Shown: positions 1-40,925 of the stretch, in pieces
Layout: the number at the start of each line of letters is the position of its first letter
Numbering within the stretch: position 1 is the first letter of the stretch
From: Candidatus Cloacimonadota bacterium
GTDB lineage: Bacteria > Cloacimonadota > Cloacimonadia > Cloacimonadales > WRIO01
NCBI GenBank assembly: GCA_029553545.1
Contig: JAKPKU010000016.1
Span: forward strand, 1 to 63,606
Length of the DNA stretch: 63,606 bases
Direction: 5' to 3'
Made by a program: the position numbers and the translations under genes
The notes under the pieces: model-generated
The model's database searches: none
What the model saw: only the letters and a program-made list of their open reading frames with translations
What the model was told of the DNA's origin: nothing

Positions 1-142
1 AGTAGGCATCTGGAGATTTAGGTGAAAATAGTTTTTGAAAAACTCCACTTTGTCCTGCCAATATATATAGAAGGGGTTGATTTAATTTATGAATCTGCTT
101 TATTCTTTTAAAAGCTATTTTGGTTACTATGCAACACCCTCA
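1..142 (+). repeat. Dispersed repeat R1, module A (cut by window edge)
   Basis: Colinear with 15181..15323: both begin AGTAGGCATCTG and share TGAAAATAGTTTT, ATATATATAG and TTACTATGCAA. This copy ends in CAACACCCTC (132..141). Confidence 0.85.
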
Positions 143-9135: not shown

Positions 9136-9431
9136 TTTTACCTCAATCAAGGTTTATTGTAAGTAGAAATAGCTTACATTTTCAAAATAATATTTGCTGT
9201 TTAAATGTCAACAAAAATGCTGTTTTGTGCTATCTTTTGTTAAGTTGAAGATGATAAAAAGAGGGAGCTGCATAAAAAGATAAAACAACTTTTAAAAATC
9301 ACAGTTTGAAAATCACTTCATTTTCATATTAAAGAGGGTACAAAAAACATGCAAAAACATATTATCAAGTCTTTTTTCTCTTCTTTTCATTAATTAGCTA
9401 TTCTATTTTGTATATCACTATTTAACTTATA

Positions 9432-9522
9432 CATACCTATGCGACTACCCTTACATTCCCCTTGCTATCTTGGAGAATGAATAGTAATTTTATAGGAATC
9501 TAAAGGGAATGTAATGGAGATT
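9432..9522 (+). repeat. Dispersed structured repeat R2, copy 1
   Basis: Aligns with the reverse complement of 40661..40751; 28-bp identical core CATTCCCCTTGCTATCTTGGAGAATGAA; internal inverted repeat TTACATTCCC/GGGAATGTAA. Confidence 0.85.
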
Positions 9523-9613
9523 AATTGTAGATTTTTAAGGTATAGAAAATTTCTGTTTTCTTTTAGAAATGATGATTGTTAAATATGCAATTTGAAGATT
9601 TTGCAATAACATC

Positions 9614-13974: not shown

Positions 13975-14982
13975 ATGAAAATATTACTAACAGGGGCTGC
14001 AGGGTTTATAGGCTTTCATCTTTCTCTTCTCTTGCTTGAAAAAGGCTATGAAATTATTGGCTTAGATAATGTAAACGATTATTATGATACAAATTTAAAA
14101 GAAGATAGGATCAAAATACTTAATAATGTAGAGCGCTTTAGATTTTATCGTGAAGATTTGAAGAACTATCAAGAACTCTCTGAAATATTCAAAAAAGAAC
14201 AGCCAGAAATAGTAATCAATCTCGCTGCCCAAGCAGGTATACGCCACTCTATCACTAATCCCTTTGCTTATGTGGACTCAAACCTCGTTGGCTTTGTAAA
14301 TATTCTTGAGCTATGCCGCCACTTTAAAATAAAACATTTACTATTTGCCTCATCGAGCTCTGTGTATGGTGGCAATAAAGAGACGCCTTTTGCCACAAAT
14401 CATAATGTCGATCACCCTATCAGCCTTTACGCAGCAACAAAGAAATCAAATGAATTGATGGCTCACACATACAGTCATTTATATGGTATTCCCGTTACTG
14501 GATTGCGCTTTTTTACTGTTTATGGGGCGTGGGGGAGACCCGATATGGCGTACTTTTCTTTTACAAAAGATATCTTTGCTGGCAAGACAATTAAAGTGTT
14601 TAATTATGGAAAGCTGCAGAGAGATTTTACTTATATTGACGATATTACTGAGGGAATAGCAAGATTAATCAACCGCACTCCACAGGCAAATAATAGCTGG
14701 GATGAGCGTACAGACGGTATAAGCACAAGCTTTGCACCTTATAAAATCTACAATATTGGAAATAATCAGCCAGTGGAATTGTTGACTTTTATCAAAACAC
14801 TTGAAGATATTATTGGCATCGAAGCAAAGAAAGAGTTTTGTGAAATGCAGGCTGGTGACGTGTTGACTACTTATGCTGATGTCACTGACTTGCAACAGGA
14901 TATCGATTTTCACCCTAATACACCACTAAAAAAGGGTTTAACTGAATTTGTTAAATGGTATCGAAATTATTATAATTTGTAA
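13975..14982 (+). CDS. NAD-dependent epimerase, UDP-glucuronate 4-epimerase (CapI/Uge) type
   Basis: TGAAGFIG, NLAAQAG, ASSSSVYG, YAATK, LRFFTVYGAWGRPDMA. Confidence 0.9.
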   Translation: MKILLTGAAGFIGFHLSLLLLEKGYEIIGLDNVNDYYDTNLKEDRIKILNNVERFRFYREDLKNYQELSEIFKKEQPEIVINLAAQAGIRHSITNPFAYVDSNLVGFVNILELCRHFKIKHLLFASSSSVYGGNKETPFATNHNVDHPISLYAATKKSNELMAHTYSHLYGIPVTGLRFFTVYGAWGRPDMAYFSFTKDIFAGKTIKVFNYGKLQRDFTYIDDITEGIARLINRTPQANNSWDERTDGISTSFAPYKIYNIGNNQPVELLTFIKTLEDIIGIEAKKEFCEMQAGDVLTTYADVTDLQQDIDFHPNTPLKKGLTEFVKWYRNYYNL

Positions 14983-15040
14983 GATTGTGTAAAATATTGC
15001 TCTGAGATTTGCAAACTAAATGCAAGTAAGCATGCATATT

Positions 15041-15323
15041 GAGGGTGTCGATTAATGTATAATTCAGGTTTACAGACTTTAATAATACTGAAAGCTGAGA
15101 TCTTAGAACTGATAAATAACTGATCTGAGTCAACTAAGGATAGTTGTTGGTGAAAAAAAATCACCTGTAGATCCGCTCGTAGTAGGCATCTGCTGGTTTG
15201 GATGAAAATAGTTTTCAAAAAACACCATTTTGTAAGCCCTATATATATAGAGGGTGTTGTTTTTTATTTATGATTTTGTTTTATTCTTTTATAAGATATT
15301 TTGATTACTATGCAATAGCCTCA
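15041..15323 (+). repeat. Dispersed repeat R1, most complete copy (modules B + A)
   Basis: 15201..15254 matches the reverse complement of 26108..26161 at 53 of 54 positions; also aligns with 1..142, 144..267 and 39464..39535. Confidence 0.88.
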
Positions 15324-15339
15324 CATAATAAAAAAAAAC

Positions 15340-25835: not shown

Positions 25836-26094
25836 AAATATTTAGTCTCTTCTTTCTTTTTCACACTATATGAACAACATTATAATAACAGTCATTAAAT
25901 GGCAAGTAATATTTTAATATTTATTATTATTTTTTCTCTTACATCTTATAAAACCTTATATAATACCTATTTAACCGTTGATTAAAGATATGATTTGATA
26001 TAGAAAAAATACCTACCATTTATACTGAGCTTATTAAATTATTAGAATAATTATTTCAATGATCTGTAATGTTTAAACATTAAATTATCTGCTT

Positions 26095-26212
26095 AAAAAA
26101 AATCTACCCCTCTATATATATAGGGCTTACAAAATGATGTTTTTTGAAAACTATTTTCATCTAAAACAGCAGATGACTTCCACAAGCGGGTTAAGAGGCA
26201 ACTTTTTTTTGC
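26095..26212 (-). repeat. Dispersed repeat R1 copy downstream of tadA
   Basis: 53 of 54 bp match to 15201..15254; upstream part aligns with 15153..15200. Confidence 0.88.
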
Positions 26213-39463: not shown

Positions 39464-39535
39464 GAGGGTATTGCATAGTGACCAAAATAATTTATAAAAT
39501 TATAAAGAGAAATCATAAATAAAAACAACACCCTC
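39464..39535 (-). repeat. Partial R1 copy (3' part of module A)
   Basis: Reverse complement GAGGGTGTTGTTTTTATTTATGATTT..TATTTTGGTCACTATGCAATACCCTC aligns with 15250..15322. Confidence 0.8.
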
Positions 39536-39930: not shown

Positions 39931-39964
39931 GCTCGATTGTCGAAAGGCGGTCGAGCTTTTTTTT
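39931..39964 (+). terminator. Intrinsic terminator after the CTD remnant
   Basis: GCTCGATTGTC-GAAA-GGCGGTCGAGC followed by T8. Confidence 0.85.
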
Positions 39965-39966
39965 CT

Positions 39967-40296
39967 TTGGTTCTCGCTTAGCTGCGGGTATTGTTTAAAA
40001 AAATCGGTAGATTTTTTTAAACGTACCCACAACTATCCTTAGTTGTGCAGCGAAGCCGTTGAATTGAATGTTACAATTTTTATCTGGTACAATTAAGGCT
40101 AATTGTACCTACGGTTGCTTGCGACTTCGTCGGTGGCTGACGAGCAAAGCTCGCCCCTACATTAGGGTGCAGACTGGGTGATAGCTTTAAAGGGCTGACG
40201 AGCAAAGCTCGCCCCTACATTATTTTGGTCCTCGCTTCGCTGCGGGTTAGGTACTTCGACTTCGTCGAAGGTTAGGTAAAAAATCAATTGATTTTT
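39967..40296. repeat. REP/BIME-like cluster of short palindromes
   Basis: Two identical 30-mers (40135..40164, 40193..40222) reading GTAG-GGGCGAGC-TTT-GCTCGTC on the minus strand; two CTCGCTTMGCTGCGGGT units; further hairpins at 39994..40021, 40028..40047, 40086..40109, 40255..40269, 40279..40296. Confidence 0.75.
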
Positions 40297-40442
40297 GTTT
40301 GTTATAAGGATGATTCTTTATATATTTCTTTCGGGTAAAAAAAAATTAAAGATGAAAATACATCTGCAATTAAACAAATCTTGATAGGTTTTTTCTTCAA
40401 TTTTCTCGGAGTGAGAGTTACTCACCATTGTTTCCAAAAAAA

Positions 40443-40518: not shown

Positions 40519-40660
40519 ACATATAAATACAAAAAATAAATATCAGTTTATTTGTCAATTAAAATAATTAATTATTTTCATGGGCAGAATAATTCATTAT
40601 TAATGCTCATAAAAAATGATAATAAAATATGCCTTTTTCCCATTCAAAATATTCATATAA

Positions 40661-40751
40661 AATCTCCCTAACACTCCCTTTTTATTCCTATAAGATTACC
40701 TTTCATTCTCCAAGATAGCAAGGGGAATGCAAAGGGAATCACATAGGCATA
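40661..40751 (-). repeat. Dispersed structured repeat R2, copy 2
   Basis: Reverse complement aligns with 9432..9522; 28-bp identical core at 40702..40729. Confidence 0.85.
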
Positions 40752-40925
40752 TCATTGATAATTAGTCATATACATAATTTACAAAAAAATATGTGAGAAG
40801 AGAGAAAAACAGACCAGAGAAGAGGATTATTTGTTATTTGGCGTGCCTATTTAATTAGTAAAATTAGGTAATATTTTTGGCTATATTTTTTAGAAAAAGT
40901 AAATATTGCTGGTATATTTGGCATA

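Follow-up and report, generated by a model that had tools for sequence, protein, structure and literature searches.

The repeat family R1 is very probably a composite, non-coding type II MITE that depends for its movement on a DDE transposase supplied in trans by an insertion sequence (IS) of the IS5 family in the same genome. Elements of this kind are well known; R1 adds a new family to them, with a modular build and an independent central module as its distinctive features. If so, a dense and puzzling repeat is explained as ordinary selfish DNA with a named helper. The initial annotation of this DNA had taken the repeat for either an undescribed non-autonomous mobile element or a repeated ncRNA or protein-binding platform. 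The mobile part of the first proposal stands, with terminal inverted repeats (TIRs), 5-bp duplications, about 140 dispersed copies and a helper IS to its credit, and "undescribed" holds at the level of the family only.

The window analyzed here is a whole contig (C252) of 63,606 nucleotides from genome G000, a 2.88-Mb MAG of an uncultured Cloacimonadota bacterium from a digester, with 268 contigs and 35% G+C. The relatives of one window protein all come from Cloacimonadota MAGs.

R1 Copies in the Window

The four repeat loci noticed initially are real, and all of them are copies or pieces of a single family. In the following list, A, B and C are the modules of R1 described below.

1 to 141, plus strand: R1 copy of the young subfamily (3' part of B, variant 2, plus C), its 5' part lost at the contig start
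142 to 268, minus strand: separate A unit, inverted, beginning right after base 141, the last base of the preceding C end
15041 to 15322, plus strand: complete R1 copy (A-B-C), GAGGGTGTCG...CAATAGCCTC
26094 to 26210, minus strand: B-alone copy (from A-run to T-run), downstream of tadA
39464 to 39535, minus strand: C-alone unit, upstream of the gene for an 876-aa outer-membrane protein

Repeat detection in the window recovered each pairing that had been listed. The direct pairs are 1-83 and 81-142 with 15181-15323, and the inverted pairs are 144-268 with 15042-15166, 15153-15265 with 26097-26209, and 15261-15322 with 39464-39525. The best pair, with 53 of 54 bases matching, was also reproduced (15201-15254 against the minus strand of the 26.1-kb copy).

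The complete copy sits between the stop codon of the epimerase gene (14982) and the conserved promoter region of a nucleotidyltransferase gene (15389). Its flanks, ATATT and ACATA, hold no intact target duplication. An identical filled allele of the 406-bp spacer with this copy was found in four JGI digester metagenome contigs by an exact-protein look-up of the neighboring gene. Synteny is broken at this 15-kb locus in the sister species G001. The two smaller pieces are absent from the syntenic spacers of relatives: the B-alone copy at 26.1 kb is missing from the hflX-tadA spacer of G001, and the C-alone unit at 39.5 kb is missing from the orthologous spacers L041 and L009, these spacers being too diverged for base-exact borders. 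The sequence of the copy at positions 1 to 141 recurs with 100% identity at the end of contig C251 and with 99% identity on C91 and C1. Therefore, the left border of the window is an assembly break caused by the repeat.

Copy Number and Placement in the Genome

The density of copies in the window had led to the prediction of many more elsewhere, and this was borne out. A blastn search of the genome with 15041-15323 gave 136 HSPs, and a profile search (nhmmer) gave 140 hits that total 26.3 kb or 0.9% of the genome, i.e., about 140 copies or fragments. The true number of R1 elements is higher, because 27 contig ends lie within 300 bp of an R1 hit. The hits fall into five classes, and many of the fragments are the product of contig ends or of other elements inserted in R1.

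A-B-C: about 37 to 40 hits
B-C: about 25 hits
B alone: about 20 hits
C alone: about 15 hits
A or A-B: about 15 hits

With a simple ORF-based gene call (88% coding), 5% of the R1 bases overlap ORFs and 95% are intergenic. R1 is enriched in divergent (36%) and convergent (21%) spacers. In spacers between tandem genes, 26 copies have the same orientation as the genes and 20 the opposite one, and so there is no preferred direction; the co-orientation with an upstream gene that was noticed for three pieces in the window is not a property of the family.

Anatomy of R1

A complete R1 is 282-284 bp long and has the form GAGGGTGTTG...CAACAGCCTC. The ends of the GAGGGTGTTG type, which the initial annotation had pointed out, can be read directly in the sequence. 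Thirty-seven complete copies align from GAGGGTGTTGATTAATGC to CTATGCAACAGCCTC, and their flanks become unalignable from exactly those points. The GAGGGTGTTG 10-mer has 78 exact occurrences in the genome versus 0-5 for 30 shuffled versions of the motif, an excess of 15-fold or more. This end box is present four times within R1, in alternating orientation.

Box 1: element position 1 of the consensus, forward; window 15041 to 15050
Box 2: element position ~122 to 128, reversed; TCACCTC after the A-run, in the window TCACCTG at 15161 to 15167
Box 3: element position 213, forward, following (TA)5; in the window GAGGGTGTTG at 15250 to 15259
Box 4: right end of the element, reversed; the right TIR

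The boxes delimit three modules, which in the consensus are A (1 to ~128), the B core (~129-212) and C (213-283, a short arm). In the complete copy of the window they are as follows.

15041 to 15167, plus strand: module A, with the left TIR, the body, the REP-like hairpin CAACTA-AGGA-TAGTTG (15131-15146), the A-run and the inverted box 2
15168 to 15249, plus strand: module B core, the best conserved part (mean column identity 0.92), ending in the (TA)5 junction
15250 to 15322, plus strand: module C, from box 3 to the right TIR; the reverse complement of box 4, GAGGCTATTGCATAGTAATC, resembles the IS left end GAGGGTGTTGCATAGTCAAC

The palindrome CTATATATATAG that had been described in the repeat is present at 15239-15250. 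The inverted A unit that abuts a C end at 141/142 indicates that A exists as a box-to-box unit of its own. R1 has no transposase gene, and the sole ORF over the complete window copy, of 82 aa on the minus strand (14970-15218), shows no conservation from copy to copy.

The modules are not equally conserved. In the same 37 complete copies, column identity is 0.92-0.94 in the B core and the internal junction, 0.88-0.90 in the outer TIRs and 0.83 in the body of A. The stronger conservation of the B core and the junction than of the TIRs hints at an additional constraint, and a protein site may lie within the well-conserved B core.

In the C end of the window copy (15301-15329), a TTGATT that resembles a -35 box (TTGGTT in the consensus) lies at a distance of 16 nt from the tip of the element. 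Based on this one consensus match, insertion of R1 into AT-rich 5-mers could create outward hybrid promoters. Promoter-like hits in R1 were not above those in shuffled sequences.

A Probable Helper IS of the IS5 Family

The helper IS was located through occurrences of the box outside R1. Two sequences that begin with a box run into contig ends about 140 bp further on, GAGGGTGTTGCATAGTCAACTATATTTTC in eight copies and GAGGGTGTTGAATAAAGCCGTTATATTGAC in eleven, and the copies within each group are 97-100% identical. A 101-bp mini-element on contig C235 bears one of each sequence, and so these are the two ends of one IS, with eight left and eleven right ends whose contigs stop about 140 bp inside it. 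The final 693 bp of the IS are on contig C117, where they encode the C-terminal 162 residues of a DDE transposase (Pfam DDE_Tnp_1). A full copy is present in the metagenome contig L132 (Ga0208195_1003414); it is 1359 bp long, from GAGGGTGTTGCATAG to TTGTTCAACACCCTT, and its transposase has 340 residues, with 97% identity to the G000 protein in the 162-residue part known from C117. The first residues of this protein, MNRNDMTFADIEI, are also encoded at the end of G000 contig C216. Against NCBIfam NF033581 ("IS5 family transposase", cut-off 140) the transposase reaches 203.6 bits, and its Pfam architecture is DUF772 plus DDE_Tnp_1. The helper IS is represented by multiple near-identical copies in the same genome as R1. 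The initial statement that no transposase is associated with the repeat is correct for the window copies, and it fails for the genome, in which an IS5-family IS with R1-like ends is present. A relative of the IS in L092, 49% identical, was set aside; it does not have GAGGGTG ends.

The ends of R1 and of the IS are nearly the same. Between the R1 left end GAGGGTGTTGATTAATGC and the IS right end GAGGGTGTTGAATAAAGC, 16 of 17-18 bases agree, and the same holds for the IS left end GAGGGTGTTGCATAGTCAAC and the R1 right end, read as its reverse complement GAGGCTGTTGCATAGTAAC. For the left TIR of the window copy, which begins with box 1 at 15041-15050, 16 of 18 bases are as in the IS right end. R1 and the IS have nothing in common beyond these termini, and their interiors are unrelated. 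Since the match is limited to the termini, an origin of R1 from the IS by internal deletion was rejected. Similarity confined to the TIRs is what defines a type II MITE (PMC10969869), and since the likeness between R1 and the IS has just this extent, R1 is placed in that type. The initial annotation had named a match to the ends or the interior of a known IS family as the result that would count against its own reading; such a match was found for the ends, insofar as they match those of an IS5-family IS.

Target Duplications

A perfect direct repeat of at least 5 bp abuts GAGGG...CCTC in eight of the 33 complete R1 copies with both ends anchored (exactly 5 bp in seven of them), whereas 0.6 would be expected from a shuffled pairing of the flanks. 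These duplications, which are rich in A and T like those of the IS, are ATAAA, TCTAA, TAATA, AATAT, TATAA, ATTCT, AGTTT and ATTGCT. Only about one-fourth of the complete copies keep an intact duplication, and the evidence is statistical rather than copy by copy. So low a fraction is expected from the roughly 10% divergence of the copies from the consensus (median identity 0.89), which is not a proof. In the young subfamily, three of the four complete copies have a target duplication.

The IS makes duplications of the same length. Five of its eight left-end flanks pair with a right-end flank by an identical 5-mer (ATTAT, AAGTA, ATATA, AATAA and AGAGA), and the 101-bp mini-IS is flanked by AACTT on both sides. 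The IS5 group proper makes a 4-bp target duplication, and the helper, with 5 bp, differs from it. Duplications were also found for R2, a sister MITE described below (ATAAT, AGGTA and TTAAT). Comparison of the duplications and the box therefore indicates that the IS, R1 and R2 have both the box and the duplication length in common.

No 5-bp duplication was found in 19 B-C copies that were tested. B-alone copies have no recognizable duplication, because their A-run and T-run ends make the borders ambiguous.

A Model for R1 Mobility

We suggest that the transposase would bind the GAGGGTGTTG boxes and cut at their tips. Any two boxes that face inward would then form a mobile pair, namely boxes 1 and 4 (A-B-C), 1 and 2 (A), and 3 and 4 (C). 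A-B-C, A and C have each been seen as units. The mosaic may have originated when IS-type ends came to flank an older palindromic B, whose arms bear outward-facing copies of the same box. As insertion sites, elements of this IS type would favor (TA)n next to an existing end, presumably giving rise to nested and abutting arrays. Any effects of R1 on neighboring genes would be incidental.

The (TA)n junction after the B core is a hot spot for further insertions. The flanks of four of the 19 IS ends fall in the CCCTC-(TA)n-GAGGG junction of R1. C units, R2 and the IS all occur in the (TA)n tract that adjoins box 3, where they form CACCCTC-(TA)n-GAGGGTG junctions (spacers, 1-10 bp), and one R1 copy has the left TIR of an R2 as the box on the right-hand side of its B core. 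R1 would provide a clean natural case of MITEs that insert next to their own ends and in this way build up mosaics.

About 45 copies of the B-alone and B-C classes lack two inward-facing boxes at their borders, and the simple transposase model does not account for the spread of B.

Age and Activity

The complete copies have a median pairwise identity of 81% and are 89% identical to the consensus. A young subfamily is marked by an insertion of about 30 bp in A together with B variant 2. Its members are 93-95% identical, and its pieces at contig ends, to which the first copy in the window belongs, are 99-100% identical. This subfamily breaks contigs, including the one at the start of the window. 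Judged from the near-identity of the IS copies and from the R1 pieces that are 99-100% identical, transposition of R1 and the IS looks recent or ongoing.

Distribution in Relatives and the B Module

The R1 family is confined to the genus, with many hits in G001 and traces in G002 and G003. A B match of any kind is present in seven of 151 genomes of the order, and an exact 22-mer scan of the genome contigs for the B core gave no match outside the genus. In G001, B stands alone in at least 22 copies of about 113 bp, whose borders are sharp (A-run to T-run) and whose flanks cannot be aligned, and only about two loci have A or C. No copy of the helper-IS transposase was detectable in G001. This pattern, with many B copies, few A or C modules and no IS, would imply that the A-B-C expansion accompanies the IS and that B is older and independent.

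In every case, REP-type hairpins lie ahead of the A-run of B, either as the CAACTA hairpin that ends A or as CCTAACC...CGCAGCGAAGCGAGG arrays (12-15 copies). A bolder picture, which we regard as unlikely, is that B (113 bp) is more than the filling of a MITE, namely an older, independently propagating palindromic element that moves without a TIR pair or a target duplication. Its arms would present an outward IS5-type box beside (TA)n, so that one side serves as a dock for IS5-type ends (A, C, R2 and the IS) and the other for REP/RAYT hairpin arrays. A single platform would then have joined two unrelated mobile systems into mosaics.

Among the B copies of G001 (columns ~150-180), five of 17 carry ...CAAAATCGGACGCATATA... 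where the others carry ...CATTTTGTCCTGCGTATA.... The first segment is obtained from the second when each base is complemented and the order is not reversed, a change that an inversion cannot yield. No partner arm was found for the complemented segment in G001. In a genome of another family, the locus L005 (G014:C20, 880-1660) has two look-alikes of the 3' half of B (AAAAACTCCATTTTGTTATGCCTTTATATATAGAGGGTT), 528 bp apart, in a longer tandem unit rich in GATTAGAG repeats.

Alternative Explanations

The strong conservation of the B core also invites the idea that R1, or at least this core, consists of genes for small structured RNAs or of cis-regulatory RNAs that act from one transcribed strand. 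Small hairpins can be drawn, for example UAGUAG/CUGCUG and GAAAA/UUUUC, and the B and B-C copies in tandem-gene spacers lean to the direction of the genes (17 vs. 6). However, the consensus folds no better than shuffled sequences on either strand (z of -0.6 and -1.6), RNAalifold found zero consensus pairs on both strands of 101 distinct B copies, and variation in four candidate hairpins mostly breaks pairs, double changes being few. Rfam gave nothing at the gathering score or at E ≤ 1 except for one chance hit (E 0.55), a terminator scan found no terminator-like site, and the overall direction in tandem spacers is close to even, as noted above. An RNA function is thus extremely unlikely. The ncRNA or binding platform of the initial annotation is left with no conserved fold, Rfam match or strand bias, and annotating R1 copies as RNA genes or regulatory sites should be avoided.

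The alternating boxes lead to another possibility, that R1 is a REP/BIME-like mosaic spread by a RAYT (IS200-like) transposase and not by a DDE transposase. E. coli BIMEs are REP mosaics in which a short motif alternates in orientation with a small set of conserved linkers; each REP/BIME unit is a short, imperfectly palindromic sequence in which the 5' tetranucleotide is conserved, and it makes no target duplication. R1 resembles them in that its recognition motif alternates between distinct, conserved linkers and REP-type hairpins are physically associated with it: one lies inside module A, and hairpin arrays directly precede about 12-15 B or B-C copies. The B-alone and B-C copies, like elements moved by IS200-type enzymes, have no detectable duplications. 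Nevertheless, we consider this origin very improbable. The R1 box does not form a palindromic hairpin, the outer ends agree with those of a DDE-type IS of the IS5 family in 16 of 17-18 positions, and the complete copies have 5-bp duplications, which Y1 transposases are not known to make. Only the hairpin carried in A is REP-like, and it is among the less conserved parts of R1, with pairs that are often broken, and so it behaves like cargo.

A third proposal is compatible with a MITE: the B core would be kept as a binding platform for a protein of the host or the element (e.g., a subterminal transposase site or a docking site that draws in elements of the IS5 type), and the A and C arms would be secondary. 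It draws on the higher conservation of B and the (TA)n junction relative to the TIRs, on the precise location of R2, the C units and four of the 19 IS ends in that junction, on the presence of B alone in two species and on the short sequences resembling its 3' half that a few genomes from other families contain. We think it quite unlikely, as the conservation of B can stem from its larger number of copies available for gene conversion or from a younger age, B is not retained at orthologous sites, and a match of any kind occurs in only the seven of 151 genomes of the order mentioned above. The explanation that we prefer is a type II MITE mobilized by the IS5-family transposase.

Comparison with Known Elements

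Like R1, type II MITEs are small, non-coding, multi-copy and intergenic, and they have TIRs copied from an IS of the same genome, a duplication of equal length, an interior unrelated to the IS, and old and young subfamilies. R1 differs from them as a mosaic of three modules with two extra internal end boxes, in which A and C also occur separately and the central module spreads without a valid pair of ends. MITEs related to IS5 elements, such as IS1106_IS5, are included in ISfinder (PMC11602168).

In Streptococcus pneumoniae, the BOX, RUP and SPRITE elements bunch and insert into one another (PMC10969869). Pneumococcal BOX is modular (boxA-boxB-boxC), a few hundred bp long, clustered and mutually inserted, as is R1; unlike BOX, R1 has a clear helper IS and duplications. 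The likeness is one of build, and no sequence relation is expected. In composite transposons such as Tn5 and Tn10, the outer ends mobilize everything between them and the inner ends let sub-units move (PMC10969869). The outer and inner ends of R1 would act in the same manner, but R1 is miniature and gene-free, and its arms are not complete IS copies.

An analogy to the alternating motif of R1 is found in the BIMEs discussed above, from which it is set apart by a box that is not a hairpin, ends that match a DDE-type IS and target duplications in its complete copies.

R2, Hairpin Arrays and a Second IS

R2 is a second MITE, about 360 bp long, of the form GAGGCTGTTGCATAATC...CTATGCAACACCCTC. It has 86 hits genome-wide, 11 of them near full length. 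Its ends, GAGG(G/C)TGTTGCATA, have the same box as R1, and it makes 5-bp duplications. The features of the window that are related to R2 and to the hairpin arrays are the following.

9261 to 9606, plus strand: R2 copy
40030 to 40045, plus strand: hairpin CAACTA-TCCT-TAGTTG, not a piece of R1 but a unit of a REP-type hairpin array at ~39960 to 40300
40647 to 40876, minus strand: R2 interior without ends, upstream of a fliD-like gene

The CAACTA-N4-TAGTTG hairpin had been reported for both R1 and the 40-kb region; it is indeed found in both, and the hairpin type is common to the array and module A. The array at 39960-40300 is dense and includes GGTCCTCGCTTCGCTGCGGG and GGTACAATTAAGGCTAATTGTACC, as well as two exact 30-nt copies of GGCTGACGAGCAAAGCTCGCCCCTACATTA at 40135 and 40193. 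The hairpin types of this array also directly precede the A-run in 12-15 B or B-C copies elsewhere.

A site downstream of the groEL terminator has R1 at the same point in two organisms (L132, 1115-1345, and G000:C192, 4323-4596). The two copies have different B variants, and the one in L132 is also cut by the stub of a second IS and by the IS5-family IS.

The second IS is also multi-copy in G000, with ends GAGAGCTTTGAATTAGAAAGCAGACAA... and GAGATCTTTGAATTAGAAAGGAAAAGATTTATAGAC.... About 35 of its ends were found in the genome, none of them in the window; examples are C142:21130(-), C185:2307, C191:45850(-) and C115:9092. These ends are mostly about 140 bp from contig ends, which makes the second IS a main cause of assembly breaks. 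R1, R2 and the two IS families together are what splits the MAG into 268 contigs. Several R1 copies are interrupted by the second IS, in three cases at an identical point of module A (after ...ATGCATAATT).
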